Virus record (IMG/VR): IMGVR_UViG_3300021255_002485
Location: 1 to 64,000 of that record
Origin: a virus
Taxonomy: Duplodnaviria > Caudoviricetes
DNA length: 64,000 nucleotides
Strand: one strand, 5' to 3'
Within the stretch, counting starts at the first letter, position 1; each line of letters opens with the position of its first letter. Below, in pieces: positions 6,283-46,800 of the stretch. Under the pieces are notes generated by a model. It had not been told where the DNA came from. It searched no databases and was given only the letters and a program-made list of their open reading frames with translations. The translations under genes and the position numbers were made by a program.

Positions 6283-6625
6283 TATGATACAGCATAAATA
6301 CGGGCAATTCGAGGGCGAACAGGTTCATCTTACCAAAGAGAAACTTCGCAAAAAGATATATTTCCTGTTGCTAATAGCCGATCCGAATACTGCGGATAAT
6401 TATGACGTGGATGTGACAGCGGCTTTCAAAAACGTTCAGCATGTTCTTGATGGTTATAATTCTTTAGTAGGTTATCCGAAGGAGGTTGTAACTGTAGCAA
6501 GCTTACTTGAAAAGGCATTGCTCAATTATCAAGAAAACTTTGATTTTCAGCTTTATCGTAAGTTAGTGCTTGATGCTGGACGAGAGATTATGAATATCAA
6601 GGAGGTGAATGATGCCGAGCCTTGA
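6275..6625 (+). CDS. hypothetical neck-region protein
   Basis: GGAGG RBS, overlaps both neighbours. Confidence 0.55.
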   Translation: MLDMIQHKYGQFEGEQVHLTKEKLRKKIYFLLLIADPNTADNYDVDVTAAFKNVQHVLDGYNSLVGYPKEVVTVASLLEKALLNYQENFDFQLYRKLVLDAGREIMNIKEVNDAEP

Positions 6626-9057
6626 TATATATAAAAAGATGTTAAATGGTGCAAAAACAAGCGGTCAAGCGTATAAGATACAATCGGATGCCATAATGAA
6701 TTCTACATGGTGGAATGATATTTCAAGCCGTGTAGGTTATTTATTTGATATGTATCATGATCCTGATCCGCATTTGTTAAGAGGTTTGGAGCCATTTACA
6801 TATAAAGATATATTTCCAATTGATATAAAATATTTAAAGCACACTTCTCAAACATATGATAAAGACCATGTAACTTATCATTTACAATTCAGACCTGGAC
6901 AGAAATGCAATGTTCCATATTTTCAACAGTATGTTGATATGTATGATATTGAATGGCCGTTGGGGTTATATGTATTAATTGAAAACGAAAGTGGTCGTTG
7001 GGATAGGTGGCTGATTGTCGATAAGGCAAATACAGAAAACACGCAATTCCCTACATATGAAATACTGAAGTGTGATTACTGCTTCCAGTACATTATGGAA
7101 AATAAAAGAATGGAAGTAGCCGGTGTTTTAAGATCCCAGAATTCGTAAATTTGTGCGCTTCATAGGGGAAACTCTATGTCGAAAGTTCTCTAATTGCGGG
7201 GAGTTCCTTAGAGTCAACATGCTACAACGTAAAGATGAAATAAACTTAGACGTGAATGCTTTAAAAAGTTGTTGAATTGGATAATCGACGCAACGAAGTT
7301 CCGAATAGGAATGTGTTCAACGAGTATATGGTCAAGTGATCTTAACGGGAACCACCTAAGTCTAATATAGATATGGTGTTGATGTACTCTGAACATCTAC
7401 CGAAAGGTAGAGAAAAATTATTTATATTAAATTGATAATTAAGACAGGACATGGGGTAGCTCCCCTTTCTTTGTGCTCCGAAAACAAAGATTACTGTCTT
7501 TTTATATTGTTTATTTTTCGGAGGAATAAATATATGGGTAAATTTACAGAACAACAATTATTAGATATTCGTGAATCATATGTCAATGGAGAATCTTCGG
7601 TTAAAATAGGAAAGAGATACGGCGTATCTCATAAACCAATATTAAAAGAATTGCATAATATGGGAATAGAAGTAGATCAAAAAAGATTCGCTAGAAAATA
7701 CAAACTGGATGAATCTTTTTTTGATGATATAAATACTCCTAATAAAGCTTATATTATGGGTTTTTTGCATTCTGATGGTTCAAATAATATGAATAAATCG
7801 ACAATATCTATTTCTTTGCAAGAAGAAGATAAAGATATTTTGGAGCAAATAAGAACAGAAATAAAAAGTGAAAAACCTTTGGAATCTTTAGATTATTCTA
7901 ATAAGCATGATTTTGGATATACACATAAAAATCAGTATAGATTAATTATGTTTAGTAAACACATGTGTAAAGAGTTAAATAATAAAGGTATTACGCCTAA
8001 TAAAAGTCTAACAATAGGTTTTCCACATTGGTTGGATAATGAATTATTACCACATTATATACGCGGAGTTTATGATGGAGATGGAAGTGTATATAGAGCA
8101 TATAGAAACGATAATAATTTACCAATTACTGTTACTATTACTGCTACAAAATCTTTTTGTGAAGATTTAAAAGATATTTGCAAAGAAAAATTAAATATAT
8201 CAGCTGGAATATATGATGCTTCTTGCCATAATGGAATAACAAAAGTATTTACATTAAGCGGTAGGAATATAGCAAAAAAATTTCTCGATTGGATATATCA
8301 AGATGCTGATTTATTTCTTCAACGTAAATATGAGCGTTATTGTAAATATTATAATATAAATAATTCTTTATCGGCCTAACGAACCGATAAAGTAACTGAT
8401 GACAATAGTGGGATTTGGACGGATTACCGTGTGACGACTGTCGAAGACGTTCAGAAGTTCGTAATCCCTCTTAATCGAGACACCGAAAAGATATTTTATA
8501 CTGAAAACGGAGAAAATCTTCGCTTTCTTATTGATGCAAAAGTAAAAACCGAACCAAGAGCCTATACTGTTTCTAAAGTAAACAGATTATCTCCTAATGG
8601 CTTGGTTAGAGTTACCCTTGCTGAAAAATTGTTTGATGCAAACAGAGACTATATCGAATTAGATGATGATGGCAATGTAATTGGATTATGGGCTGATTAC
8701 TGGAAACATAATCTCACACCCTCTTCTTCCGATGAAAAACCTCTTCGTATTCGCTCCGAAATAACTTATTCCGGTTCAAAACCCGAAATAAAGCTTAATG
8801 GAAGTGCGAAGAAATTTACAGTTACATTCTATAAGGATGATGAGATAACAACGTTTCAACATGGAGATTGGAAATTTACTATAGATGGTCAAGATGTATC
8901 TGATGTATTAGATATAAATACAGATGGCCTTGATGAGAATCAGATTAAAATAAAAATCAAGGCTAATGAAGTTTATATAGGTAAAACTTTAACCGTAGCC
9001 TATATTAGCTTTACTGGTATAACTTCTAGTACGGAGATCAATATAATCGGGATTTAG
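6609..9057 (+). CDS. neck/head-closure-type virion protein split by a group I intron (exons 6609-7146 and 8402-9057, ~397 aa spliced)
   Basis: Splicing T7146|A8402 restores ...SQNS-Y-NSGIWTDY... in frame with ORF 8431-9057. Confidence 0.8.
7147..8401 (+). mobile_element. group I intron A (1255 nt) with LAGLIDADG endonuclease
   Basis: P1 CGU/GCG with U.G at the splice site. P10 UUGU pairs with exon ACAA. P element AAUUGCGGGGA, P7 GAGUA 7322-7326 / UACUC 7385-7389, terminal G8401, in-frame ligation. Confidence 0.9.
7534..8379 (+). CDS. intron-encoded LAGLIDADG homing endonuclease with N-terminal HTH-like segment
   Basis: Two motifs, AYIMGFLHSDGS and HYIRGVYDGDGS. GGAGG RBS before ATG 7534. 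Confidence 0.9.
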   Translation: MGKFTEQQLLDIRESYVNGESSVKIGKRYGVSHKPILKELHNMGIEVDQKRFARKYKLDESFFDDINTPNKAYIMGFLHSDGSNNMNKSTISISLQEEDKDILEQIRTEIKSEKPLESLDYSNKHDFGYTHKNQYRLIMFSKHMCKELNNKGITPNKSLTIGFPHWLDNELLPHYIRGVYDGDGSVYRAYRNDNNLPITVTITATKSFCEDLKDICKEKLNISAGIYDASCHNGITKVFTLSGRNIAKKFLDWIYQDADLFLQRKYERYCKYYNINNSLSA

Positions 9058-20763: not shown

Positions 20764-21418
20764 TTTACAACAAGAGGTGTGAATTATAGACAAAATGTTT
20801 AATGATTAAAAGGAGAAACAAATATGAATTGTAGATTTATGGGGGTGTACTATAATTATGGAGAAACAAATCCAATTTGACGTTTTGGCACTTCTGGATC
20901 AGGTTTCGGTTCCGTCTGAAGCCAAAAATTCAGTTGAGAAATGTGCTGGATCAACCTCAACGGCTTGCCAGTGTTGTCCGTACCGTGGAACACAAGTAAA
21001 TTGTACCCATCGAAGCCAATTTGTTCAACACGTAAAATAATCTGCTGATTAAACTGAACTAAGACCATAATTACGTCTTCTGTATTAGGAAGAGATTGTT
21101 GATATTCCAGTATTTCTTTGATTAAATATTGGGCTATAGTTTCAGCATTTGAGTTGTATAATAATTCAGCAATGCTTTGATTATTTGCACTTATTTCTAA
21201 TAATCTATGATTTTGTTCATTTTGTATTGTTGGATCGTATATCATACTTATCTCTTAGGATTTCATGTATATTATAGGTGTTTTGGATTCGAAAAGTATT
21301 TCATTATTATTTTACTTGTTCGTTTCATATTAAAGAACTCATATATGCATTAAAACAGTATTATAAAAAAGGATTGTAACACATCAATATGTCTTTTACA
21401 ACAAGAGGTGTGAATTAT
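20764..21418 (+). repeat. 24-bp exact direct repeat TTTACAACAAGAGGTGTGAATTAT (20764-20787 and 21395-21418)
   Basis: Read directly. The second copy is the RBS/start of gene 21417. The first copy ends ATA instead of ATG. Confidence 0.85.
20856..21245 (-). CDS. antisense accessory gene, DUF6173-like
   Basis: C-terminal LIQHISQLNF...RQIGF pattern recalled as DUF6173. Upstream - strand promoter TTGTAA-N17-TACAAT near 21401-21373. Confidence 0.6.
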   Translation of the reverse strand: MIYDPTIQNEQNHRLLEISANNQSIAELLYNSNAETIAQYLIKEILEYQQSLPNTEDVIMVLVQFNQQIILRVEQIGFDGYNLLVFHGTDNTGKPLRLIQHISQLNFWLQTEPKPDPEVPKRQIGFVSP

Positions 21419-21911
21419 GGCGAAAAATAATTTAACATTAAATCTAAATTCCTTAAAAAATGATTTGCGTAAATATGCTAATCAGGTATGTAAATATGCT
21501 GCAAGCGAGATTGCTGACGAATTAACAGAAGATACCGTATTTGCAATTGGAGTATTTTATTCGCATTATACTCCAGAAAAATATAAGCGACATTACTATA
21601 ACTTTATGAACAAGAGTTATAGAAGATACTATTCAAATCCTCATAATAAAATATATCGCGGAGGTGTTGAATTTACTCCTAATTTAATGGATAAATTATA
21701 TCGCGATTCTATAGATGAAGTGTTTGGATCAGTAATTGAACTCGGTTCTCATGGTCCAGAACTATACACAAATGTTCAACCAATGAGGCGATCTCCAATG
21801 CAAATGGTTATTGAGGACAGAGATAATATAGAAAAAAACATTGATGAATATATAAATAGAGCAAAAGCAAAAGCCAAAACTGGAACATATTCGGTTTTAT
21901 CGTTTAAATGA
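21417..21911 (+). CDS. basic tail-module protein preceding the tape measure gene
   Basis: GAGGTG RBS, 164 aa, position. Confidence 0.55.
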   Translation: MAKNNLTLNLNSLKNDLRKYANQVCKYAASEIADELTEDTVFAIGVFYSHYTPEKYKRHYYNFMNKSYRRYYSNPHNKIYRGGVEFTPNLMDKLYRDSIDEVFGSVIELGSHGPELYTNVQPMRRSPMQMVIEDRDNIEKNIDEYINRAKAKAKTGTYSVLSFK

Positions 21912-21926
21912 TAAGGAGGTATAGAT

Positions 21927-24900
21927 ATGCCGAGAGGAAATCCAACAATTAATATAGGACTTACGTCAGATATTGATGCTTATATAAAAGAATTAAAAGG
22001 TTCATTAAAAACTCTCGGTAATCAGGGAGTTGATTTAGGATTAGCAGATTCTGTTAAGAATGAAATAAATGAAATTGAAAAAATGCTCGATGGTCTTCAA
22101 AAAACAATGAAGACAATTTCTGGAACTAAACTCAGTTCTGCGACATTTAGCAAATTTCAGTCTCAAATAGGGCAACAATTAGAAGCTTTAGATAAAAGAA
22201 CAACGGCTCTTGAGAATGGTATGGATAGTCTTATTAATACCATGTCTAAAGCGGATGGCGGAAAGTTTGCATCTAATTTACAAAACATGCATAAAAACAT
22301 GGATGCTTTATGCGTAAGTACAAAAGAGACTGTACAAGCTATCTCTGAAATACAAGATACCATCAGAGATAATTCGAACATTCAATTGTTTGATGCAACA
22401 AAAAGCATAGGAGATTTAAAAGCTCTTAAATCTCTTGCCGAAGGAATTACCAAACAATTTGATAAAGAACCAAAATTTACTAAGCCCAAAAATATTGAAG
22501 AAGCGGTTGAATCAATTAATAAGCTCACAAATGAATATGACGAACTTGAAGATAAAATTTATGAATTAGATGAAAAAGAAGATCGAACATTTGAAGATTC
22601 TAGAAAACTCCTTGAATATAAGAATAGATTAGTTGAAATAGGACAGACAATCCAAAGAATTTATGATTATGGTTATGAAGAGGGATTTTCTGGAATTCAA
22701 CAGTTTGATTCATTAGCTGAGAGTCTGGATAGTTCTCTGGAAAGAATTCAAGAGGACACTAAATCTTATGTCACAAAAATCAATCAAGAGTTATCTAGGA
22801 TTGGACAAAATACAAATGTGTCATTACCTTCTTCGGATAGTATTGGAAAAGACAGTAAAGGTCTTACTGTTCCGATAGGGATACGTACAACATCTAGAGG
22901 GTTGCTCTCAGATTGTATGAAGATATTAACTTCGGTACAAAATAAATTATCTGATACACCTTTAGAAGTGGATTTGGCTCTAACTACTAAGTGGGGGACA
23001 AAGCGAAACAAAGAATTACTTAAGACATTTCAAGAACAAATAAACGGATTAACTGATCAATCTAATATCTCTGAGTTTCAAGCTCTTTATGATAAAGTTG
23101 CAAAGAGTTTTGGCGATGAAATAGAACTGAAGGTTGGTTCCAATATTGATGTTGTTGAAAAACAAATCACTAAAGTCATTACAAAATTACGCAAAGAGAT
23201 AAAAGATAATCCTCTTAATATTGATTTAGAATTCGATGTTAATGCTAAGAACAAGGCGGCTTTACAAGCGGCTTTAACAGATATTACAAGCGATGTAGTT
23301 GTTACGATAAAAAAGGTTAAATTCGCAAAAGAACTTAACGTAAAGAATACATTACAACAAGATTTTGATCAATTATCAACAGAACAACTTGATAAACTAC
23401 TTGCAAAAATTGATGAATTAAAGAATGCCTCTATTCCAATGGTTCAAACTATTGCAGAAATAAGGGAAATATTTAATTCATTTTCCACAGATAAACTTGT
23501 ATCTGAACTCAAAGAAGTTATTAGGTTGCTTCAAGTAGGTTTTAATGCATTGTCTATAAATGAGTTAGACAATATGTTTTCAAACTTGCAAAAAAGGGTA
23601 TCTTTTATTTCCGGTTCGTTAAGAGGTGCTAATCTTAATGAGATAAAAAGTGTTTTAGCCGACTTTAAGGAGTATCAGTCTCTTGGTGGGCAAAATAGTC
23701 TATCAGATTTAGGCGGAACAAAAAATATACAAAGTTGGCTTCGTAAACATATTGCAGACCAACAAGAGTTGCAATCAGAACTAAATGAAACTGCGAATGA
23801 AGTTAAAGAAGTTAATCGCGCAATTGAAGCTGAAAGTATATCACAATTAGTTCAACCACTTACTCAAGTCATTGAATTAATAAATACAAAATCTCAAGCT
23901 TTTGGGGATAGTTCTATAGTAACTTCACAATCGATTGACAATGAAATATCTGATCTGAATCGCTTGTCAACACATTTAGAAGAAATAGTGAGTCAGATTC
24001 AATCCATTGGAAATAGCAACACTTCTTTTGATGCAAAATGGCTGAAAGATTTAAAGAAGATAAAAGCTGATGATTTAAATAATGTATCAAATGCTTTATC
24101 TTCTATGTTTAATTCTTTACAAAAACTCGATTTATCTGATAGCAATTTTATCGTTCAGATACAACAGATTTTAGATAAAAGCAAAGAACTTTCAGATTTA
24201 GCAAAGATATTATCTGAAAGCACTAAAAAACTTAATGATATTTCCGAAAGAGTTAATACTCCGTTCACCAATGATGATTTAGCTCTTCAACAAGCATATA
24301 AAGATGCCGAAGAATATCAAGCAAGAGAAAAGGCATATCAAGAACAAAAGAATGTTCTTATTGCTGAGGGTGTTCGTCAACAAAAGGAATACGTTGAATC
24401 ACTAAAGCAAGCTACAGAAGAAAGCAAAAAACAATCTAGTGGCAAACAAAATATTATTAATAATATCAATAAAAATCTTGATAATGCTGGAAAATATTTA
24501 GATGCATCTAAATATACCAATGATTTTATCAATGGTATTAGTACCGTTATTGAAAAACTACAAAGACTTCGTGTTGAAATTGATCAACCGTTAGATGCAG
24601 ACGGATTACAAGAGGCTACAGATAAAGCTAAACTGCTTGCGAAAGAACTTAATGACAATATAGCTCAAAAAGCGTTGCCTGCTATGAAAAAAGCATCCGA
24701 GCAAACGATTAATAAAGCTTTATTAAAAATTGATCAATTTGTTAATGCAAATTCAGCAATGGGTCGTCAATGGAAACAAGAATTCGAAAATTTACGCATA
24801 AAGATTCAAGCTGCTGATTCCATTGAAGAGGTACAAAGATTAACAAATGAAGTTATTGAACTTGAATCTTCCGTGATTCGTGCAGGCAAAGCCGGAAGAT

Positions 24901-27900
24901 CTTCTTTCGATAATTTAGCTCAGCGTATAAAGCAAATGAGCACAAACTTCATTGCTATGCATTTGAGTCTATATGATATTGTACGATATACACGTGGTGC
25001 AGTAGACGAAATCCAAAAACTTGATTATGCTCTCGTAGATCTTCGTAAGACGACCACTATGAGTAATAGTGAGCTGAACGAATTCTACTTTAATGCAAAT
25101 GATGTAGCGAAAGAATTAGGAACTACTACGGAAGAAATTATAAACCAAGCAGCGGCTTGGTCAAGGTTAGGATATTCTTCCAAAGAAGCTGCTACAGAAA
25201 TGGCGGCTCTTAGTTCTCAATTTGCTGCTATATCTCCGGGAATGTCTCTGGATAATGCGACAGATGGTCTTGTATCAACTATGCAAGCATTCCATATTGA
25301 AGTTGATAAAGCCGAGAGAGACATTATGGATAATGTGAACAGAATCGGTAAATTTATGCCGAAACATATGGTAACATATGGGGTCGTTTATGCGGCCTAG
25401 AAGTGACTCAAAACGGGGAAACTCCTGAGAAGGACAATCCCGTGGGTAAGATTGACAAAGTTAAAGATTAATAATGTGAAGTATTTGACAATATAAATGT
25501 GTTATTGTATATTATAGATACAAAAAGACAGATACATAGACGGTTGAGCCGAGAGGTTCTATTTTATCTGAAAACTAATTTTATAGTTACAGCATCAATG
25601 ATCACCACTGGCATGGCGGTTATAATAAACAAGCAAATGTCGCCGTAAAGCGAGCGGTTCACCAAGTTATCAGTTACATCAAATTAGCAACCTACACCTT
25701 GGGCGAGGGCGGTTGCTTTTTTGATACTAAACTCCAAATGCCAATCACTATATCAATTAGGGATTTAATTCCGCTAATTATCGTGCTGGCAAGAGCAATC
25801 AGCTCAAAAGCCATACGGCTAACCTTTCGTTAGATTTTCCATCGGCATCCACCTCCTTTGGGATGGAAGTTCTCCGATCATAAATCGGGCAAAGGTGAAC
25901 CGCCTACCACTTTGGCGACATTTCTATAATACATTATATTTCACGTTATTATATCTTTCAAGTCAAATCCCGTAACGATCACAGGGTTTTAGTAATAAAA
26001 CCCGTATGTCACTCTCCTATTTTTTAGGAGAAAGGTATGATCTGAACTCACGCTATAACAAAATGAAACGTGAGAAGTAGCCAGAAATGACTACTCGCCT
26101 ATTTATTTAGGTCACAAAAGTAACAGATTGAATACGTTCGCAACATCCAATGATGAAATAATGGAGATGCTTAAGCGTTCATCAGCAGCGATGAATGCCG
26201 CAAACAATACTCTTGAAGAAACTATTGCACTCGAAAGTGCTGCTGTTCAAATCACGAGAAATGCTGAAACTACCGGAACGGCGTTTCGTACCATTTCTAT
26301 GAGGATTCGAGGTTATGACGAAGAGACCGAAGAATATATTGGTAATGTCGAAGAACTAACTGGTAAAATAGCTGATCTGACAAAAACAGCTGAAAAACCC
26401 GGTGGCGTATCCTTATTTAAGGATGCAGCCAAAACAGAATACAAATCTACATATGAACTGCTTAAGGAAATCAGTGAGATATATCACGATCTCACCGACA
26501 AACAACAAGCAGGTCTTCTTGAGGCTCTAGCCGGCAAACGTGGTGGACAAGTTTTGGCAGGCAAACATATATGCCTGAATGTACAGCAATGTGCATAACA
26601 GAATATATTTAATTGCAGGTAAAACCTAAAGCCTTGCACCACAATAATGGGGAAACCACATTATGATGGTACGAAAGTAGAAACAACGCAAGGATGGTAT
26701 ATGGTTAAAAACCTAAGTACTTTAGATAAAAATGGTAGTTCTTGCAGCGAAGCACCCTAACGTACCCCGTAGATCATACGGTACTTTAGGCGAGGGTGAA
26801 CGTTCAACGACTAGATTCATGTCGAGCTATAGACTAGAGAATAAGGGTGGAAATCCCGAATATCTATAGCAATAATCGTAGGGCGCAATCGCAAATGGCG
26901 TGGGTGAAATCCCCTTAAATCGAAAAGGTATACTCCTATGATTGACACTTTTAAAGGTGGATATTATAATCAAGGATGAAGAAATAGTCTGTTCTCATTT
27001 CGAAAGAATGAGATGTTATTAGTATTATGAGGTATATTTTTATATGAATAAAAAGAACCCGAGAAAAGTAACAGATACAGAAAGAGAAACAATGAAAAAC
27101 TTATATCTTTCTGGATGGAAAATGAAGGATATAGCTAAGAAACTAGATAGATATCCTGATGTTATAAGAAGAGCATTAATTGATATGCGAGTATATGACA
27201 ATAAAACAAATTATATGACCGAAGAAGAACTTAATTCAATTATTTTAGATTATCAAAAAGGAATGACCCCAAAGGAATTATCCATTAAGTATCATAGAGG
27301 GGATGGATATCTAATAAATAAATTGAAAAAAGCTGGAGTGTATCAGTACTCTACTTTAAGGATTTCTAAACAACAGTGGGAAAACATTGCAGAATTATAT
27401 CAATCTGGTAAGATTGATGAGATTTGGCGATTGTATCCTCAATTAACTCTATCATCTTTATATAGCAAAATGTCTAAAATGAATGTGCGTAATGGTACTA
27501 GAAATTATTGGACTGATAAAGATAGAGAAATTGTTAAAGAGTTTTATTTAGATAGTAATATTAATGATATATACGAGTTGATCGGTTATAGACATACAAT
27601 TGATGCAATTCAGACACTAGCATTCAAAGAATTTAGGTATTCTAAAAATAAAAATTGGTCTGATGAAGAAGATCGAATTTTAACGGAATGTTATTCAGTG
27701 TTACCAATTGAGAAGGTCTTAGAATTATTACCAAACAGGACATTAGAAGGTGTTAGAAATAGAGCGAAGAAATTTCGATTAATATCAAATTATAGAATAT
27801 CAACATATTGGACACAAGAAGAAAATGAGTTTTTATTTAATCATTGGCAAATGTTATCTGATTATGAAATATCAAAAATATTAAATAAAAACGAAATGTC

Positions 27901-30900
27901 TATAAAAGACCGTAGGAATTTATTAGGTTTATACAAGACAGATAAGTCAATGCAGAAATATAAGAAATTAAAGAAATTGTTTAGGGGACAAATCTGGTCT
28001 TGGAAACAAAAATCTGCCGAACAATGTAATTTTCAATGTGTTTTAACTGGATCATCGGAATTTCATATACATCATTTGTATGGTTTTAATGATATTTTTG
28101 TTGCATTTGTAAAATCGAATAATATTATAAGTGAAAATGTTGATGATTATTCTTTTGATGAACTGCAATCGTTATGTACAATGTTTGTAGAATATCACAA
28201 TCAATATCCTTTAGGAGTATGTGTAAGACCGGATTTACATATGTTATTTCATGACATTTACGGAAAACATAATAATACACCAGAACAATGGGAGAAGTTT
28301 AAGAATGATTATCAAAACCAATCAATTGCATAATACTAAAATCTAATAAGTGTTGCGAACTTATTGAACATATAGATACTCGATGATTTCTCAGAGGTAG
28401 ATCGAGCTATGACACAAATGTCTGATGCTGCGGGTGCAGCTGATGACGAAATAAAAATCGTGGAAGAGAGTATAGACTTCAGACTTAATCGTTTGAAAGA
28501 GACATGGGTAGGTACACTCCAAGATCTAATAGATCGTGGTGAAATCGGTGTAATCGTAGATGGATTGACAAAAATCTCTGAAGCCATCGGATTCATAGTA
28601 GATAAAATAGGTTTACTTAACCTCGGAGGCCTTGGACTAGAAGGCTTCTTAATGAGTAAAGGATTAGGGTTAACATTAGTCGTAGTTAACAAGCCCCTTA
28701 TTATAAGGTCATGCAATAATGCCGCATGATTAACGTAGTGAGTGTTTTAGACGGGTAACTGTCTAAACTAATCCATAAATGTCGAATATCGGGGGAAGCC
28801 GTAGCCCTTAACAGGGGTGTTTGATTGCTGAAATAAAAGCGTCATTTTATTATGATGTGCAATCAGGCTGTCAAAAACGGTAGTCCCGACGCGTCAATCA
28901 AAGAAACGCGCGAGAGACTGACAAGACACGGAGGCACACAGGCGTATATGTGTGTCGTTGCTGCAATATACAGTCCAGTGTGGGGAAAGCCCACCGTAGA
29001 ATAAGGATTAAAAGGAGAAACGAATATGGAAGACAAAATTAATGAATATAGAATTTATTGGGATACGGAATTAAGAAAAAAAGATAGAGAACTTATGCTT
29101 TGGATGTTTATTGCACTAATAAATGTTATACCTAATATCATAAATATTCTATCTTATTTTACAAAATAAGTATAAATCGTAATAAAGCTTGCAATAAAAC
29201 CGATGAGACCTCCAATAATGATACCGCTTCTAATAAGCCAATAATGAATTATAGTTAATTTCCCGAAATCAGTAATGGCAATAGGGAGTGTGTGATCAAA
29301 GCTGCATTCTGACTGACCTTCACCTAAATCAATAATAGCGACTTCATTACAAATATAGCCTTTTTTAGCCAAGGCTATAAGTTGCTTTGATACGGATTCT
29401 TCTGTTTCGTTATATAATAACACGCAGAAATCATGAAAATTTAGTGGGGAGCGTTTGTAGAGATACATCAATATCCTACAATCAGCATAATTTATCATAC
29501 TTATCCCCTAGGATTCCAAGTATATCCGCATTTTCCACATCGGTTCACGGTCTTACTGGCTCCTATGAAGCCCCAGAAATGATTAACTCCTCTTGCTCCG
29601 GTAGCGATATTGGTAGAACCGCATTTAGGGCATTTGAGAGCACTCTTTTCTTCTGCTTTAGCACTCTTCTGCCCCTCTACTTGAGCGCGGAATTGAGCCA
29701 TACGGGATTGATACTCGATGATGTCTTCTTCCTTGAGTTGCATCATGGCTTCGAAAAAGTCGGGATCGGTAGAGATTTTACCTATTATACTATAATCTGA
29801 ACCTTGTATATTTGTTTTCTTTAATTGATTAAATGGGGTATGACAACATATACATTCATCTCGATTGATAATTCTAGGATCAGGGATATATCCTTTAATT
29901 AAAAAATAAAAATGCTCATCTAAACTATTAGCACATGTTTTACAATAATAAATATATTCGTTTTCCATAATATTGTATTGCTCCTCATTCTTTAAGTATA
30001 ATTCTATCATATGGTTGTAAACTACGACAAGATAAACAATCAGTGGACAGGTATTATACCTAGTATAGTTTCGGCAAGGAAAGAACTTGTTACATTTAAT
30101 GATGAAACAGAAAGTTTCATTACTACTTTTAAGGGTTTTTCTGCTGGTATGAATTCAGATGGCATAGATAAACTTGCTGCTGATTTAAGGAATGTTGATC
30201 AAGAAGTTGTAAAATCTGCTAAAGGTTTTTCTCAAAGCGGTCAATCAATTGAACAATGGGAAAATAGCGTTCGTAGAGCGCAAGTATCCTCTTCAAACTT
30301 TGGTAATACATTAAAGTTTTTAGGTGGTATTCTAGCTAATATGGCTATAGCCGCTGTTTTAGAATCTCTTATTGCACTAACCTATGAATTAGCCAATGCT
30401 AACAGAAAGCTATTCGAAGAAGCTTCAAAACTGAATAACGAATATAATTCTGCTGAATTAGATATCGATAATTATAAAACACAAATACAAGATCTTCAGA
30501 ATAAAATCAATGATTCAACTACTTCTTACGAGGATGCTTGTGATGCCAGAGAACAATTACTTGATATTCAAGATAAGTTAATATCTAAATATGGAACGGA
30601 ACAAGGAGCAATCGAAGATATTACAGATGCTATTAACAATCAAGTATCTGCCTTGGATCGTTTAAAGGATTCTGAATATACAAAATTATTAGGGGAATAC
30701 AACAATCCAGATTTCTGGGATAATCCCATTCAGAATATTGCAGATAAAATTAATCGCTTTTCTTATGGTATAGCAGATTGGATTTTAGGTGGAGAATATG
30801 ATATCCCCTCTAGAAGTGATCTTTTAGTAAGGGAAATGGGTCATGTTTATGAATCTCTACGACTTCCGTCTAATGATTTAGATATATTAGAAAAGTATTC

Positions 30901-33900
30901 TGAAAGTTTTGAAAATATTCGTATTAAAGCAGTAAATAACGGAGAAAGTATTGCTGTTATAACCGGGGAAATTCATGAAGCAAGAAATGAATTGTCTGAA
31001 TTATATACATTAATGGAAAATTCAGATGCTTCTCAACGAAGTCTCAATAATATTTCCAAAATAATCCATAATTTAGATACCGAAATTTCTAATGGTGAAG
31101 AATGGGCTGATAAACTCATACTTAGAAACAAAGTATTAGGCAACAACAATAATCTAAATATAGAAACTCAATATAATGATTATTTGACTGCCCAGCAAAA
31201 GTATAAAGATGCTGTAATTGCCGGCAATGAAAAATTAGCTCAAAGCATTGCCATTGAACTGTCTAGAATTTATCAAGATATTTATACAAAGTATATTCCA
31301 GATGGGATTAGCTCTGATGAACGTCAAATATTAAATTATATTGAAAGATTGTCTCCGGATATTGATTTAGGTTTAGCTAAATTTAAGGATACACTTGCTA
31401 ACGAATTAAATTCTTCCTTAAAAATAAATCCTCAAATAAAGATTAATGATGAAGCCATTAATCAAAATGAAATATTGATTGATGAATTAATGGAATATTT
31501 GAACGATGAACTAATGGATGCTGCCGATTTAGGTGTAGATATATCAAATACTGTATATGGTAATATTGATACGGCATTTAGAGATCGTTTGGAATGGACA
31601 GAGGAAAATCTTGCTAAATATCATGATGCAATTCTTTCATGGGGATTTACCCCAGAAGAATTAAAAGATTCTGTTAGTACTGTTCTTGGTTCAATGGATG
31701 AATTCAATGGCATCCAAGTTGCATATTCTCCTATGCTTGAAACCGATCACGGTTTAGAATTATTATCTCGCGATACTGTCAACACGTATATATCTAGTGT
31801 TTTAGAACAAGCTGGAGAAGACACGTCCTTAGAAAACATTTTAAAAATAGATGCCAAAGGTTTTGAAATACAAGGTCAACAGATTCGAAATCTTATCGCA
31901 GATATTGGAAATACCGCAGAAACAACTTCTCGATCTATGCATTTTACGGGTGTAAATGGTGCAATTGATGGTACGGTTAACAAAATAAATCGTCTTAAAG
32001 CAGAGATTAATAATTTGGGTGATACAAATGAATCGCTTACATCAAATTTAGATTCAACACTGACTCAAACATTAAGAAATGCTGTGGGTTTATCTGGTAT
32101 TACAGCTGAAACATTAAATATAATGGATGAGGCTGTAAAGGATTACGGAGAAGATGCTTTAAGAAGTTTAGGTTATACTGAATCTGAAATTACAGTTTAT
32201 CAAAATCTAAAGCGTATCCTTGAAGAATACGACGTATCTATTAAAAATGCAACGTCTGATCTTGTACAATTTAACATTATAGATAACGAAGTTCAACAAC
32301 AACTTAAGAATACATTTAATTCTCATGATGTCAAAGATTGGATAGACACATTGACCGACGAAGAATTAAGTATTCTTATAACAGGTAAATTTGATGGCAA
32401 AGAATCCTTAGAGGATCTGCAAAAGTGGTTAGAGAATGCCAAAAAAGAAGCAGAATCAAATTCTCCCATCCTTTCTCCCGAATTTGATATGTCCGCTCTT
32501 TCTGCTGCCGGAGAGGATCTTAAGTCTCTAAAATCTTTATACGATCAATATAGAGAGAATATAGAGAATAATCCTACGAAGCCTTATCTCGATCTCACTG
32601 AAGTTGAGGGTTTGCGTGATAAGTTAGAAGGAATTGTAGGTGCAGAAGATTTCAATGCTTTTGAAAGTTTGGTAACAAATGCTAATTCTTCAGCTTCTGA
32701 AGTTGAAGCAGCATTTAACCAAATGGCTACTGCCTATGCAGCGGCACAGATTAATATGCAAGGAGCTACTGCTAAAACAGCAGAAATGCTTAGAACACAG
32801 CTTCAAGAATGGGGATTTACTAAAGAATCCGTGGATCAGTATGTTAATGCGATGATGATCGCAGAAACAGCTAATTCAAGTTTTGGATTATCTCAAGATC
32901 AAGCCATTGCTAACCTTCAAAATATGGCGACCCAATTGGGAATAACGGATGAACAGTTGGCTCAATATATCATCGAAGCAGCTCAAGCTGGATATATTAA
33001 ACTAGATGGGGATATCAGCTTCTTAGAGCAATTAGTTAGTGGATTAGGTGGAGCTATAGATGCTTTGCGTATGTATAAAGCCGCTTTCTCAGCTGGTGGT
33101 ACTGCAATCACAAAGAATCAGGCAGAGTATGAACGTGCTAAAGGCATGAAAAAGCTGAAAACGGATACAGATGCTGCATCAAAATCCACTGATACGTTAG
33201 CAAACTCCTTGCTTAAAATGGGTAAAACTGCCACGCAAGCAGGTAAATCAGCGGGTGGTGCAGGTGGAGCAGCTAAAGACGCTGCTGAAGAGACTTCTGA
33301 TGTAATGTCCACTCTTTCTGGTCAGCTTGACGAAATTCAAGCAGCATATAAAGACCTCAAAGATATCATGGATGATTATAATGAGACGGGCAAAATCAGT
33401 GTAGATCAGGCACAAACTATTCTTACCTCTGATTTCCGTTATCTTGCTCTTCTATCGGATGAGTCTGGGGCACTCGCACTTAATGAACAAGGTTTCGTAA
33501 ATCTTGCTCAAGCTAAGCTAAACGAGATGCAGATTACTCTTGTTCGTAATGCCATAGATACGGTTAATTCGCTCACAAGTGAAGCAGAAGCTGCCAAATA
33601 TCTGTCTAATGCTTATATTGAACTCGGTAATAATGCTTTAACCGCATCACAACAGGCTCTTGCAGCGGCTGTTAATGCAGCTCATGCTCGTGGTGCAATG
33701 CAAGGTGCAGCCGCAGATATGATTGCACAGGGTGCTCAAAATGCATTGTCCATGCTTCAGAATGTAGACTTTTCTGCTCAAGGTATGGGTGCAGCATCGG
33801 GATCGTCAGATTCCAAAGATTCTTCTGGAGATTCTTCTAACAATTCAACTCCTGAAGAAGTTGAAGAAAAATACGAGGAAGATTTCGATTGGATCGAACG

Positions 33901-36900
33901 ATTACTTGAACGCTTAACCAAGATTACCGAAAAATGGCAGAAACAAGCAAGCCGATTCTTTACATTCTGGAATAAGAACTGGGCAGTAAATCAGCAAATT
34001 AAATCTGGGCGAGACGAAGTTGACGCTAATAAACGTGCTTATACGTACTATATGAAGCAAGCAGCCGATGTCGGACTCGATGTAAAATACCGTGATCTTG
34101 TAGAAAAAGGCGGATTTTCTGTAGAAACTATCGAAAACAAGGAACTTGGAGAAAAGATAGAGAAATATGAGGAATGGTATGATAAGGCTCAAAAATGTAA
34201 GGAAACTATTCAGGATCTTTATGAAACTGAACAAGAGCTTATTAAGAGTAAGCTTGATAATATTGTAGATTACTATGATACACTTGACTCATACTACTCT
34301 TCTATCGTATCCAAGATTGACGCTCAAATAGGTGTTAAAGCAGCCGCAGGACAGCGTACTACAATTGAAGATTTACTTCGTCAATATGCTGCTAATCTTG
34401 ACTATTACAATAATGCTCGTGATGCTCAGCTGAAATATCAGATGGGATTAGCCATAAATGAAGCGGTTACTGTCGATACAGCTGAAGCTGCGATAGATAA
34501 AACACGTAAGGTTTATGTTGGTACAAATGCTTATGAAACCCTTACCGAGCGTCGGGATGAATTACAAGATAAACTAGATGAGTACAATCAATCCCTCCAA
34601 GATATAGCTGATACCAAGGCTGAAATAGCTGAAGCCAGAAAAAATAGGGATGCCGAGGAACAAAAACGTCTAAATGTCGAATTAAAGGAACTCCAGAAGA
34701 TTTCTAAATCATATAAGTTCACAACGGCAGAAAAGAGGGAATTTACAAGTATAAATAAAAAGCTTGAAGTATTCTCTACTATATTGTCAGACAAGACTTA
34801 TTATGATGAAATTAGTGAGATAGTCGATAATTATCTTGAGAGAATTGATGATTATACGGTTCTTACAGAGCAAATCAAAGAACTCAACAAAGAACTCCGT
34901 ACCCAGAAGGATAAAGATGTTCGTAAGTCTATTCAAGAGCAAATCAAGGATTTCCAAAAGCAAGCTAAAGAAGCCAATCTATCCGGCAAAGAAAAGACGG
35001 AGCTGAAAAAGCTTCAACAGCAACTTGAAGATTATGATATCACTGGTGATACCACGGTAACGCGAAACTATGCTCAAGCATATGCAACGCAACAAAGATT
35101 GCTTGAAAGACAAGCTGAAGCACAAAGACTTTCAGATGTATTGGATGCAGATACCCAGAGTCTGCTTCAAGCAAGATTAGATAAAAATACTGATGATATC
35201 AAGTATTATCAAAAAGCTGTTGCACAAGATAAAAGAGATTTAAACAAAACCAAGCTTAAGGCAAACGAGGAGAAGCTTCTAAAAGCTCTCACGGGTCAGC
35301 TTGACGCAATTGCTAAGATTCAAGATATTGGTGTTGTCGATAATTTAGTCGCATCTACAGCTACATATCAAAGATTGCTGCAAAATATCGGAAATCTGCA
35401 AAGTAAGGAAAAACTGAGTCTTGCAGAGCAGACCAAACTTAATATGTATCTTGATGAGTTAGCAGCTATCAATGAAGGTGTGTTAGTAGATGACTTATCG
35501 TCTTATGTGTCAAATTACGAAAAATGGTGGAAATTAAATCAGATTGAGAATAAGACTCAAGCACAATGGCAGCAATTCCTTAAGTTGGACGACTTAAAGA
35601 CTAGTTTGGAAACCGCATATCAGAGTTATTTAACAGGTTTACAACAGGATCTTCAAGATGCAATTGAAAGTATTAATGCATCTACTAATATGGCAGATCT
35701 GGAATACAATAAAAAGCAAACCGAAGAAGCCATTCGTAAGGCTTATGCGGATCGTACTGCTGCTGAAGAAGCTACTATTAAGGATACGACCGAATATCAG
35801 ACTATTTTAGCTACAATCAAGAACCTTGAAGATGATGAAGCGGCTCTGCTTAAAAAAGGTAAAGGCTTGAGTCCTGCTAATAAAGCAAAGCTTGAAAAGG
35901 CACGTAAAGAATTAGAAGCTCTCGAAACCGGAGCTACCCTTGCTAATATCAAAGAATACAAAAAGTATTGGGAATATGTCAATGATGACAAGCGTTTAGC
36001 ACGTTATAATAACGGTACTCTTAGTGCCGCAGAAGCAACGACATATGACTTGTATATGAAGTATCTCCGTCAGTGGGATGAAGAACGTGAAGAAGTTTTT
36101 GGTGATATTGAAAAAGAACTGCAAGAACAGCTTCAAAAGTTGGATATTGAGTATGATACCCGACTCAATGAGCTTGAAGCCGAAAAGTATGAACGTCTTC
36201 AGACCATGTATGAAACAGCTAAGACTCTTGCAGAAGCGCAGATTAATCAATATCAACGAACCATTGATAACTTAAACGCTCAGATAGAAAACTACAAGAG
36301 TATAGCGGATCTATTGAGTTCACTCGATTTAACCACTATTCGTAAATACAATATAAATGAGATCTTCGATATGGATGGTAATGCCACCCTTGAAGAACTT
36401 TTATATAGTAAAGTACGTGATGCAGGGAAAAAATCTCAAGAACTTATAAATGATCTGGTTAAACAAGCTGATTTGTACCAAGAATTAATTGATGCAGGTA
36501 CATCTGAAGGATTTGAGGGGATTCTTGAAGATTATCGTTCTCAGGCTTCAGAAGAAATGCAGAGCGTTCTCGATGAAGTCATCAAGCAGCTTAATGAGAA
36601 TGATTATACTGATAGTGAATGGATTACTGAATGGCAACAGAATCTTGCTGAGATTACGGACCAAATTGTTGATACAATTCAATCCGTACAAGAGTTAGCT
36701 GACAAGATGAGACAAGTAACATTTGCTAATATTCAACGAGCGTTGGATATGAATGAATCACTTGTTTCTCAATTAAGTGCTCAAGCAGGAATATTTGAAG
36801 ATGCATGGATGCGTGACGCTGAAGGCATTACACAATACGGCTATGCAAGAGCAAGTATTCTTGGTCAACAAATGACCGTACTTCAAGATCAAGTTCGTAA

Positions 36901-37906
36901 TTATGCCGAAATGGTCAGAAAAATAGATGAGGCTCAGAAGAATGAGGATACTCGCTATGCTACTGAGGACGATTATTGGAAAGCACGTAATGAAGCGTTA
37001 GTTAATTACTATAATTCCATTGGAAGTCTTGAAGATGTTACCAATCAGATCTATCAAATCGGTAAAGAAGCTCAAGAAAGCGAAATAACAAACGTAAAAA
37101 CCATTATTGATTTACGCAAAAAAGAGCTTTCAACTAAAAAGGCTTTATACGAGTATGATAAAAACCTTAAGAAACAAACTAAATCTGTTGAAGATTTGAG
37201 GGCGCAGATTGATGCTTTGAACAATATTTCTACCGCAGATGCCCTTGCTCAAAAAGCTCAGCTTGAAGCTCAGCTTGCTGAAGCCGAGGAAAGTCTCGAA
37301 GATTTGCAAATCGAGCATCAATTTGATTTGGAAACACAAGCGTTTGATAACTTTATTGCAGATTTAGATAAGACTCTTACTGATGCAAATGATACTGTAT
37401 ATGAAACGTTTGAAGAGTTTGCTGCAACAATAAAAGAAATATTGAGTGCTGCAAGTGGTGCTGATGTAGAGGGTGCAATACAGAATATAACTGATCTTTT
37501 GATGGGTGAAGGTTATAAAGATCCGTCATTTGAAGCTGGTAGTTTTTCAACTTCAAATGGTACTTACACTCCATTAAGTCAGTCTGATTTCTTAACAGGA
37601 CTTGGATTTACCAATCCTTCAACTCTTGATGCTAATGCGCATCTGTCAAATATGAATGATTTGTTGGCTCAGATATTTGATAATATGGCAACTAAGATTA
37701 CTACAGAGATTGAAGATTTGGCGAAGAACGCTAATCAGAACAATATAACTATCAATCAGAACTATGATTCGTTATTGAATGTTAATGGCTCTATTGATAA
37801 GACAGTTGTCGATAGTGTTGAAGCACTTCTACGTGAAAGCTATTCATACACTCGTGAAAAGCTTTATGCAGAACTTCAAAAACTTGGAATTGTTCGTACG
37901 TACTAA
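21927..37906 (+). CDS. tape measure protein in four exons (21927-25349, 26131-26562, 28376-28670, 30015-37906), 12,042 nt = 4,013 aa spliced
   Basis: Ligation gives in-frame NVNRIG|NTFATS, GQVLAG|ILDDF and SKGLG-F-VNYDK. TP901-type TMP core motifs (AAAWSRLGYS, GTAFRTISMRIRG) span the exons. Long coiled coils, upstream of distal tail gene. Confidence 0.88.
25520..25722 (+). ncRNA. putative antisense antitoxin sRNA (~200 nt)
   Basis: Promoter TTGACA-N17-TATATT at 25485-25513. No substantial ORF. Ends in terminator AGCAACC...GGTTGCT-TTTTT, which overlaps the toxin 3' end. The 5' end is approximate. Confidence 0.65.
25692..25814 (-). CDS. putative type I toxin, 40 aa MAFELIALASTIISGIKSLIDIVIGIWSLVSKKQPPSPKV
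   Basis: Hydrophobic peptide with basic/Pro tail. Own promoter TTGAAA-N17-TATAAT (~25962-25934, - strand). SD sequences lie inside hairpins. Confidence 0.75.
   Translation of the reverse strand: MAFELIALASTIISGIKSLIDIVIGIWSLVSKKQPPSPKV
26942..26970 (+). promoter_or_regulatory. perfect sigma70/sigmaA consensus promoter inside intron T2
   Basis: TTGACA-N17-TATAAT, 73 nt upstream of the endonuclease ATG. Confidence 0.75.
27044..28333 (+). CDS. intron-encoded HNH-like homing endonuclease with HTH/Myb-like repeats
   Basis: C-terminal CVLTG..FHIHHL...GVCV..DLHMLFHDIYG. Repeated WT/WS.EE...L helical units. Confidence 0.75.
   Translation: MNKKNPRKVTDTERETMKNLYLSGWKMKDIAKKLDRYPDVIRRALIDMRVYDNKTNYMTEEELNSIILDYQKGMTPKELSIKYHRGDGYLINKLKKAGVYQYSTLRISKQQWENIAELYQSGKIDEIWRLYPQLTLSSLYSKMSKMNVRNGTRNYWTDKDREIVKEFYLDSNINDIYELIGYRHTIDAIQTLAFKEFRYSKNKNWSDEEDRILTECYSVLPIEKVLELLPNRTLEGVRNRAKKFRLISNYRISTYWTQEENEFLFNHWQMLSDYEISKILNKNEMSIKDRRNLLGLYKTDKSMQKYKKLKKLFRGQIWSWKQKSAEQCNFQCVLTGSSEFHIHHLYGFNDIFVAFVKSNNIISENVDDYSFDELQSLCTMFVEYHNQYPLGVCVRPDLHMLFHDIYGKHNNTPEQWEKFKNDYQNQSIA
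29026..29169 (+). CDS. 47-aa peptide with hydrophobic C-terminal half inside intron T3
   Basis: AAAGGAG RBS. MEDKINEYRIYWDTELRKKDRELMLWMFIALINVIPNIINILSYFTK (hand-translated). Confidence 0.5.
   Translation: MEDKINEYRIYWDTELRKKDRELMLWMFIALINVIPNIINILSYFTK
29154..29498 (-). CDS. intron cargo: winged-helix-like protein with C-terminal TM helix
   Basis: L.KKGYI...ITDFGK wHTH-like pattern and terminal GIIIGGLIGFIASFITIYTYF segment. Confidence 0.65.
   Translation of the reverse strand: MINYADCRILMYLYKRSPLNFHDFCVLLYNETEESVSKQLIALAKKGYICNEVAIIDLGEGQSECSFDHTLPIAITDFGKLTIIHYWLIRSGIIIGGLIGFIASFITIYTYFVK
29501..29968 (-). CDS. intron cargo: double zinc-ribbon protein
   Basis: CKTC/CICC and CPKC/CGKC pairs. 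GAGGAG RBS before ATG 29968. Confidence 0.75.
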   Translation of the reverse strand: MENEYIYYCKTCANSLDEHFYFLIKGYIPDPRIINRDECICCHTPFNQLKKTNIQGSDYSIIGKISTDPDFFEAMMQLKEEDIIEYQSRMAQFRAQVEGQKSAKAEEKSALKCPKCGSTNIATGARGVNHFWGFIGASKTVNRCGKCGYTWNPRG

Positions 37907-46536: not shown

Positions 46537-46800
46537 TTCAGTAACCCACGACTGAAGTCGTGGGATTGTTAGAAACCACTACATAGTGGTGACAATCCCA
46601 ATGCTGAATAGCCTAAATCCTACGAGGACTACGTTAAGAGAGAATATATAGGCACTTTGGAATGTATAGCCAAGTTCCGAACACTGCGGTCAGTGATTAA
46701 ACAATTCTGTTGGGTAGGGATAGTGTTGCTGATAAAAACCTCTCATTAACATTGGCGATGGCTACCTAACCACTCTTCGGAGTGAGTAATTAAAATAATC
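46537..46800 (+). ncRNA. IscB-type omegaRNA / HEARO RNA scaffold (IS200/IS605 OMEGA remnant) with no IscB gene
   Basis: End hairpin CCCACGACTGAAGTCGTGGG. HEARO-like blocks TAGCCTAA, GACTACGTT, ATAGGCAC, CTGCGG, GATTAAACA, AACATTGGCGA. Pairings GTTAAGAGAG/CTCTCATTAAC and TAGCCA/TGGCTA. Ends at an AAAGGAG RBS. Confidence 0.85.

Follow-up and report, generated by a model that had tools for sequence, protein, structure and literature searches.

How the tape-measure gene of a large gut phage can be read through an interruption whose predicted ribozyme ends about 1 kb before the predicted 3′ splice site is the question raised by the locus described here. The DNA analyzed, hereafter the window, comprises positions 1 to 64,000 of the IMG/VR virus record IMGVR_UViG_3300021255_002485, a phage record of 131.8 kb flanked by direct terminal repeats. 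Its tape-measure gene (21927-37906) carries three interruptions, the third of which is the subject of this analysis (Table 1). An initial annotation, made from the letters alone, had proposed at this place an endonuclease-free group I intron with an unusually long P10 guide, holding an antisense two-gene operon as cargo. Our analysis of the window and its relatives indicates that positions 28671-30014 very probably form a group I intron spliced at 28670|30015. It is also likely that this intron combines a P10-guided choice of its remote 3′ splice site with a splicing-protected accessory-gene region possessing its own junction promoter.

When position 28670 is joined to position 30015, the frame is kept and the translation is ..KGLG-F-VNYDK. 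Residues 1-500 of exon 4, used as a query, returned nine proteins, among which P0005, encoded on a 93-kb contig (L003), begins 13 residues upstream of the window junction, is continuous across it, and reads MALEGVMMTQGFGFLQYDRKTG. Across the junction itself, P0005 reads ..LEGVMMTQGFGFLQYDRK.. where the window has ..LEGFLMSKGLG|FVNYDK.., and the window exons, reading LGLEGFLMSKGLG|FVNYDKINN, are interrupted exactly where P0005 runs through. Another of these proteins, P0004, which carries PF10145, likewise spans the junction, and P0003 (L002, 49% identical) starts like exon 4 and is preceded by two minus-strand genes, an architecture as in the window. Exon ligation restores the frame of an uninterrupted homologue, as group I splicing should. 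The ATG at 30011 has no Shine-Dalgarno sequence, and the position holds no ATG in L002, which also sets the start of exon 3, exons 2 and 3 adjoining there without interruption. The terminal G at 30014, with exon 4 beginning at 30015, and the exact in-frame ligation therefore both stand as initially described, the latter with the added continuity of the intron-less P0005.

The 5′ end of the intron displays the features of a group I core. The P (CGGGGGAAGCC), Q (UCCCGACG), R (GAGAGACUGAC), and S (AAUAUACAGUCC) elements can be read directly from the sequence and, like the layout of the guanosine pocket in P7, are canonical. With the R element read as GAGAGACUG and the S element as above, the guanosine pocket comprises the pair G28914-C28976, a bulged A28915, and the pairs G28916-C28975 through G28920-C28971, an arrangement to be compared with C262/A263/G264 in P7 of the Tetrahymena intron. 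The GenBank phage collection contains nothing matching the intron region or exon 4 by blastn or tblastn, and single-protein searches of viral contigs with exon 4 or the zinc-ribbon protein of the cargo found no related loci. The core of L002 is nearly identical to that of the window, and exact 16-mers from the core, used to pull IMG/VR contigs, gave ~20 further loci with a homologous core, on contigs of ~5 to 166 kb, most of them of 87-166 kb. All the retrieved loci align to the core (nhmmer E 1e-15 to 1e-26), and in all of them a tape-measure gene is interrupted after a shared ..G-x-G motif; judged from these sequences, the intron family is so far confined to one tape-measure site, ..G-x-G | x-V/I/F-N/K-Y/F-D.

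Aligning the 14 distinct cores over 49 pairs leaves 99.9% of the 686 cells paired, and 15 pairs are changed on both sides. Neither value was reached in any of the shuffled controls (0/500), and slid alignments gave 25-49% paired cells with 0-3 double-changed pairs. The covariation is carried by P2, P2.1, P5, and P8. GCCGU (28798-802) covaries with ACGGU (28877-81), the L029 group having GUCCU with AGGAU instead, and this helix is named P5 because it is placed after CGGGGG-AA as P5 follows P4 and J4/5 in canonical introns. The first assignments of P7 (UAGUC/GACUG) and P8 (CGCG hairpin) were dropped when covariation showed the GCCGU/ACGGU helix to be P5. P5a, P6, P9, and the hairpin between P2 and P3 still fold as hairpins with different sequences across clades, and the only two core differences between the window and the near-identical strain L057 fall in the P6 and P8 loops. 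The group I core is thus borne out by covariation over the 14 cores, its end, formerly put near 28995, being now placed at 28994, on the 3′ strand of P9. Within the same alignment, two invariant loops, L2.1 (AUGCC, with ACGCC in six sequences) and L8 (GGCGU), are complementary, the one variable pair switching between U.G and C-G, and they are a candidate tertiary loop-loop contact.

What could link this core to a splice site 1 kb away is the guide GTCGTAGTTAACAA, which faces the first 14 nt of exon 4, TTGTAAACTACGAC. The two strands (28679-28692 and 30015-30028) form 13/14 pairs with one A.A mismatch, and among all 14-mers of the 64-kb window, 30015-30028 is the sole 13/14 match to the guide. 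The two exon bases that meet at the ligation junction, one from exon 3 and one from exon 4, pair with neighbouring bases of the guide, which is the textbook arrangement. Both ends were mapped for nine introns (window, L002, L019, L032, L037, L026, L051, L052, and L053); the 3′ exon was not located for L015 and L029, where the contigs end, and that of L053 was found at 11/14 pairs only. P10 has 11-14/14 pairs in these nine introns, in exact register. Comparison of L032 (exon AUUGUAAACUACGA) with L051 (exon AUUGUAAAGUUUGA) reports three positions changed on both strands and a fourth that became G.U. P1 comprises 3-5 bp in the nine introns, with U.G at the splice site in all. L015, L024, and L036 have an exon C with a guide A instead of U.G at the 5′ splice site, C being a rare exception to U at this position (PMC4227781). 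Since natural P10 helices are weak and formed with 3′-exon nucleotides 2-8, and since the optimum for engineered trans-splicing is near six base pairs (PMC6155759), a 14-pair P10 is unusual. The unusually long P10 of the initial annotation is hence retained, and it covaries with the 3′ exon in relatives. Just upstream of P1, the exon sequence GGAUUAG (28661-28667) is perfectly complementary to the intron sequence CUAAUCC (28768-28774), and the two are paired in the minimum-free-energy fold.

Introns that share this core and these exons range in length from 1100 to 6357 nt, and their cargo differs among nearly identical cores. The window intron measures 1344 nt and that of L002 1100 nt, followed by L019, L032, and L034 (4088 nt each), L053 (4103 nt), L051 (5663 nt), L037 (5677 nt), L052 (5685 nt), and L026 (6357 nt). 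Wherever the 3′ end could be mapped, the gene closest to the 3′ splice site is invariably a zinc-ribbon gene on the minus strand, whose product is 31-61% identical to the window copy (L002, L019, L037, L053, and L051; same place and same strand). The other cargo of the relatives includes a 79-aa open reading frame (ORF) with a GNAT acetyltransferase, a 300-aa PemK/MazF-like protein, DUF2513 and DUF3800 proteins, a Trypsin_2 protein matching PADLOC PDC-S45 (E 8.5e-35) and LmuA, two SocA/Panacea antitoxin-domain proteins, and several ORFs without a family. The window's own passengers match none of these families. No transposase family, IS200/IS605 TnpA/TnpB included, was found in any cargo ORF scanned, and none of the nine introns with both ends mapped is free of cargo. 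The proposal of a cargo slot is therefore sustained insofar as introns of 1.1-6.4 kb with the same core and site differ in their gene sets, which are partly toxin-antitoxin or defence-like; that the slot is domesticated is an interpretation, the data also fitting an insertion site that is merely tolerated. In the window, a long-range stem closing the cargo, between the region after P9 and the last 45 nt, is no better than in shuffles (z -0.2). A 9-10-bp complementarity between ACUUGCAA and UUGCAAGU occurs in L019, L032, L037, L026, and L053, ~90 nt after S and ~40 nt before the terminal G, and L051 has UUUGGG with CCCAAA at similar places. This pairing could loop out the cargo like the inverted-repeat stem of IStrons; its duplex energy is not significant against shuffles.

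In the window, the 3′ part of the intron (~1 kb) holds the two minus-strand genes and the 47-aa sense ORF that had been described there, as ORFs 29501-30010 (-), 29154-29498 (-), and 29026-29169 (+). For the zinc-ribbon gene, the ATG at 29968 is the more likely start, as it is preceded by a GAGGAG Shine-Dalgarno sequence and four aligned homologues in relatives begin there. The double zinc-ribbon label comes from weak Pfam and PHROG matches and from an AlphaFold model (predicted local distance difference test, pLDDT, 82.6) with two ribbons linked by long helices. Foldseek comparison of this model with the PDB returns generic zinc ribbons only, with E above 0.1, and no nuclease fold; the invariant residues of the family are essentially cysteines and the glycine-rich C-terminal ribbon. 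The second gene encodes a putative winged helix-turn-helix protein with a transmembrane segment (wHTH+TM), which has no Pfam, PHROG, or PADLOC match. A structure search with its low-confidence model points to wHTH proteins of the ArsR/MarR/HxlR type, and homology search returns a single relative, in the near-identical strain L057. No Pfam or PHROG match to a homing endonuclease (LAGLIDADG, GIY-YIG, HNH, His-Cys box, or PD-(D/E)XK) was found in the window ORFs or in the 30 cargo ORFs scanned from relatives. As these scans recognize no such family and the zinc-ribbon model lacks a nuclease fold, the description of the intron as endonuclease-free is upheld.

Several further observations concern this cargo region. 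Comparison with L057 reveals a hypervariable patch at 29092-29237, of ~60-80% identity and with a 10-nt indel, in a region otherwise 99-100% identical; it spans the hydrophobic C-terminal ends of both convergent ORFs. Two short boxes of the cargo, termed L and R, have copies at 20800-20826 and 21240-21272 that flank an antisense DUF6173 gene, in a 631-bp cassette (20764-21426) bracketed by 32-nt direct repeats at 20764 and 21395 (91% identical). A box related to box L also follows P9 in L002. Since the final codons of the zinc-ribbon gene lie in box R, the copy of this box at 21.2 kb looks like a relic of that gene, which suggests an exchange between the intron cargo and the intergenic site at ~21 kb. 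In L054 (NCBI contig JARCCX010001837.1), the zinc-ribbon homologues P0032 and P0035 are antisense to their neighbours and lie beside a YoeB/YefM pair and an 887-aa ORF; the intron core was not found in L054 within the 12 kb read.

The antisense cargo raises the question of its transcription. A scan of the window finds a promoter-like site straddling the 3′ splice site, as the initial annotation had it, with its -35 in the exon, within the P10 target, and its -10 in the intron. The same promoter criteria were applied to the minus strand around the 3′ splice site in seven representatives of four clades, and exactly one promoter-like site was found in each (7/7), with the -35 in the exon and the -10 in the last intron bases. 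The exon -35 is TTGTCG at -16 in the window and L002, and TTTACA or TTGAAA at -8 in the others; an upstream TG is present in 6/7 representatives. The idea that the same exon bases act as tape-measure codons, as P10 target, and as -35 box is accordingly supported as a feature of the family, all seven sites being straddling ones.

These elements can be assembled into a mechanism. In the late transcript, the 5′ splice site would be defined by the short P1 (GGGU/GCCC, with its U.G). Once the first step is complete, the 14 bases of the guide, located 5′ of the P1 strand, would pair with the start of exon 4, and the P10 thus formed would bring the 3′ splice site, 1 kb off here and up to ~6 kb in relatives, beside the 5′ exon. 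The terminal G would enter the P7 pocket, and the exons would be ligated in frame to encode a tape-measure protein of ~4,000 aa. Because the whole region would be removed from the mRNA, the 3′ part could hold genes without harm to the essential gene, and the stretch between P9 and the terminal G would serve as a variable accessory region. Transcription of the zinc-ribbon and wHTH+TM genes probably starts at a sigma-70-type promoter with an exon -35 and a -10 in the last 14 intron bases. From this arrangement, we infer that the intron splices itself and that P10 serves to locate the distant splice site; activity of the promoter and a benefit from the cargo would follow on the same footing.

A number of points weigh against this reading. 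P3, P4, outer P6, and P7 are invariant among the cores, hence compatible with the model and uninformative, and part of the R element is fixed by the search word itself. P1 is short, no P9.0 pairing was identified, and the 4-6 kb reached in relatives is unusually large for group I introns, the usual size of which is 200 bp to over 1 kb (PMC2504315). Rfam cmscan, at the gathering threshold and with E up to 10, yields no RF00028 match to the core on three nested ranges (356, 2,101, and 64,000 bases), and neither does a search of the complete genome with this model. RF00028 does detect two other introns of this genome (7137-7412 and 26595-27012), and model-based screens find only introns resembling known ones (PMC11878797). 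Promoter-like sites in the window region number 6 against 6.3 expected by chance, so that the weight of the window site comes from conservation in relatives only. Lastly, the window's two cargo genes have no defence match in PADLOC, Pfam, or PHROG, and relatives of the zinc-ribbon gene are also found singly on bacterial chromosomes, in ordinary neighbourhoods outside any intron.

Seen as DNA, the guide and its target form an inverted repeat with 13/14 matches, the ORF 30011-37906 begins with an ATG, and Rfam finds no intron at 28671-30014, from which one could argue that nothing is spliced, that 14-bp inverted repeats delimit a DNA insertion at 28679-30028, and that separate ORFs yield the tape-measure protein piecewise. 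This is extremely improbable: the repeat fits the P1/P10 register exactly and shows covariation with coding changes, the group I fold of the core covaries as well, the right-hand 'repeat' encodes VNYD, which is also present in the intron-less homologue, exon 4 has neither a conserved start nor a ribosome-binding site (RBS), and the cargo ORFs scanned include no transposase. If splicing is granted, the element might still not be endonuclease-free, as the zinc-ribbon gene is the only one found in every family member and always abuts the 3′ splice site, which would suit a mobility or splicing factor of the intron itself, either a new homing nuclease or a maturase. We attribute a small chance to this explanation, given that the protein has no nuclease motif or fold, that its AlphaFold model matches generic zinc ribbons only, that the invariant residues are essentially the cysteines and the glycine-rich C-terminal ribbon, that homologues exist as single bacterial chromosomal genes outside introns, and that the gene is antisense to the intron RNA.

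A different kind of doubt bears on the cargo rather than on the ribozyme. The intron may well splice, and its 3′ part may be a tolerated dumping ground in which accessory genes and selfish toxin-antitoxin modules accumulate because splicing makes the site neutral, the phage gaining nothing and the long P10 being a repair for the growing distance. The variation of cargo among nearly identical cores, the toxin-antitoxin-like nature of much of the relatives' cargo, made of modules able to persist selfishly, the lack of a defence match in the window cargo, and the presence of the same boxes around another cassette at an ordinary intergenic site (20.8 kb) would all agree with it. However, in all lineages where the 3′ end is mapped, the zinc-ribbon gene keeps its place, strand, and promoter-like site, a constancy that points to selection on at least one passenger, and no cargo-free member was found among the nine introns with both ends mapped. 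We therefore hold the dumping ground to be possible, if on the unlikely side, and favour P10-guided remote splicing around an accessory-gene region with its own junction promoter. An extension of the favoured reading would make the intron a dedicated, splicing-protected gene platform, whose junction is at once P10 target, tape-measure codons, and an antisense cargo promoter that exists only with the intron at the site. Antisense transcription, early or lysogenic, would then be coupled to late splicing and tape-measure supply and could regulate them, and the hypervariable TM ends would be specificity determinants of phage-phage exclusion. This extension strikes us as distinctly doubtful.

Table 1. 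Features of the tape-measure intron and its surroundings (positions in the window; x joins the two strands of a pairing)
Feature	Position	Strand	Remarks
Tape-measure insertion 1	~25356-26130
Tape-measure insertion 2	~26566-28376		Holds a 429-aa ORF
Tape-measure insertion 3	28671-30014		Predicted group I intron under study
Tape-measure exon 3 (5′ exon)	28377..28670	+	Start approximate; ends ..KGLG plus first base of the F codon (translation)
P1 5′ strand (exon GGGU)	28667..28670	+	U28670.G28693 wobble
Group I core	28671..28994	+	324 nt, 5′ end of intron; hand model on alignment
P10 guide	28679..28692	+	Adjoins the internal-guide strand of P1 on its 5′ side
P1 3′ strand, internal guide sequence (GCCC)	28693..28696	+
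P2	28697-704 x 28735-42
P2.1	28709-14 x 28724-29
Loop-loop pairing L2.1 x L8 (candidate)	28719-23 x 28941-45
Peripheral hairpin	28747-68
P3	28780-83 x 28925-28		UGUC with GACA
P4	28790-94 x 28884-88		CGGGG with UCCCG
P5	28798-802 x 28877-81		P5abc-like extension 28804-68 and A-rich strand
P6	28890-94 x 28906-10		CGCG hairpin; loop varies, GAAA in L002
P7	28914/28916-20 x 28971-76		A28915 bulged
P8	28933-40 x 28949-56
P9	28980-84 x 28990-94		GAAA-type loop (L9)
Box L	29002..29028	+	27 nt; RBS and ATG of sense ORF; 93% identical to 20800-20826
47-aa sense ORF	29026..29169	+	Hydrophobic C-terminus; convergent with wHTH+TM gene; predicted
Cargo gene 2, wHTH+TM protein, 114 aa	29154..29498	-	N-terminal winged-helix-like domain, C-terminal hydrophobic helix
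Box R	29493..29525		End of zinc-ribbon gene, RBS and start of cargo gene 2; 88% identical to 21240-21272
Cargo gene 1, double zinc-ribbon protein, 155 aa	29501..29968	-	ORF open to 30010
Promoter-like site TTGTCG-N18-TAGAAT	30001..30030	-	Upstream TG; -35 30030-30025, -10 30006-30001; from scan
Terminal guanosine (omega G)	30014	+	G directly before P10 target in 9/9 introns with both ends mapped
P10 target	30015..30028	+	First 14 nt of exon 4, codons F-V-N-Y-D
Tape-measure exon 4	30015..37906	+	~2,630 codons

The host genome of the intron is a 132-kb siphovirus-like gut phage. The sequencing runs that best match its sequence are gut metagenomes, no RNA run being listed among the matching ones, and the protein encoded at 30-1715 is distantly related (22-25% identity) to proteins of Lactococcus 949-group phages and of large Bacillus siphoviruses, several of these relatives being annotated as portal protein. 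A tyrosine integrase is encoded at 55621-56829 on the minus strand. The genome also possesses a standard group I intron at 7137-7412 (RF00028, 55.6 bits, above the cut-off), followed by a LAGLIDADG ORF (7432-8379); it was found by the genome-wide RF00028 search and is not listed by the whole-window cmscan at the gathering threshold. Insertion 2 of the tape-measure gene weakly matches RF00028 (26595-27012, 26 bits, E 7.6e-6), and its 429-aa ORF has helix-turn-helix and Myb-like matches with, by eye, an HNH-like C-terminus undetected by Pfam. This insertion is present in L003 and L057 and absent in L002. Insertion 1 resembles, by eye, an intron of the T4 td type; a homologous 3′ half is located in L002 at ~6500-6672, at another tape-measure site (before YDEETEE), and the region corresponding to this insertion contains a 355-aa ORF in L002 and in strain L057 and a short insert in the window. 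Finally, a HEARO (IscB omega-RNA-like) RNA lies at 46537-46770 (126 bits).

To our knowledge, a large foreign block in the 3′ part of a group I intron is otherwise known only from IStrons (CdISt1, BcISt1, and relatives). In these group I introns, the block is an IS200/IS605 element (PMC4227781, PMC3984707). They share with the present family the 5′ group I ribozyme, the large protein-coding block in the 3′ part, and the 3′ splice site kilobases from the core, and splicing out the whole element makes insertion in a gene harmless in IStrons, as is predicted here. The window has its 5′ core at 28671-28994 and genes at 29026-29968 ahead of the terminal G, and no embedded IS200/IS605 element. The TnpA/TnpB transposon of IStrons moves the element to many sites, whereas the present family has no transposase, occupies one homologous tape-measure site, and carries changing accessory, toxin-antitoxin, and defence-like genes together with a conserved antisense zinc-ribbon gene. 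The T4 nrdD (sunY) intron likewise has its core first, an ORF downstream, and a remote 3′ splice site, which 3′-terminal pairings bring to the core. However, a peripheral loop of the T4 intron encodes a homing endonuclease on the sense strand, while the genes are here antisense or mixed, do not encode endonucleases, and vary between relatives. Phage morons, which are accessory genes with their own promoter placed between genes inside late operons, resemble the present cargo as small accessory genes in a late structural region with a sigma-70-like promoter (here predicted) in an integrase-encoding phage. In contrast to morons, the cargo resides within an essential gene, its harmlessness would depend on RNA splicing, and its promoter-like site is made of exon and intron bases.

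Phage group I introns are usually viewed as selfish ribozyme-plus-nuclease elements. In a survey of Bastillevirinae, the intron proteins encoded in loops are essentially all nucleases (PMC11878797). Closest by location are the tape-measure introns TMP-IVS1, 2, and 3 of Bacillus cereus-group prophages, group I introns classed IA1 or IA2, several of which may occur in one tape-measure gene, most without a complete homing endonuclease and with P1/P10 adapted to the insertion site (PMC2504315). Unlike these, the window core lacks P7.1/P7.2 and has a P5abc-like extension, and its family carries 0.75-6 kb of unrelated genes and a 14-bp P10. Searches of the open-access literature returned no described group I intron with toxin-antitoxin, defence, or other accessory genes, nor one with an antisense gene having a junction promoter. 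The family would represent a third arrangement, in which a site-fixed intron in an essential structural gene holds kilobases of interchangeable accessory genes together with a conserved antisense gene. Such introns may hide phage accessory and defence genes that have so far been overlooked; gene callers show the tape-measure gene in pieces, and the ribozyme escapes Rfam. They would also provide a natural ribozyme that appears to find its splice site up to ~6 kb away by means of a 14-bp P10, a property that may be relevant to engineered splicing systems for long inserts or circular RNA.

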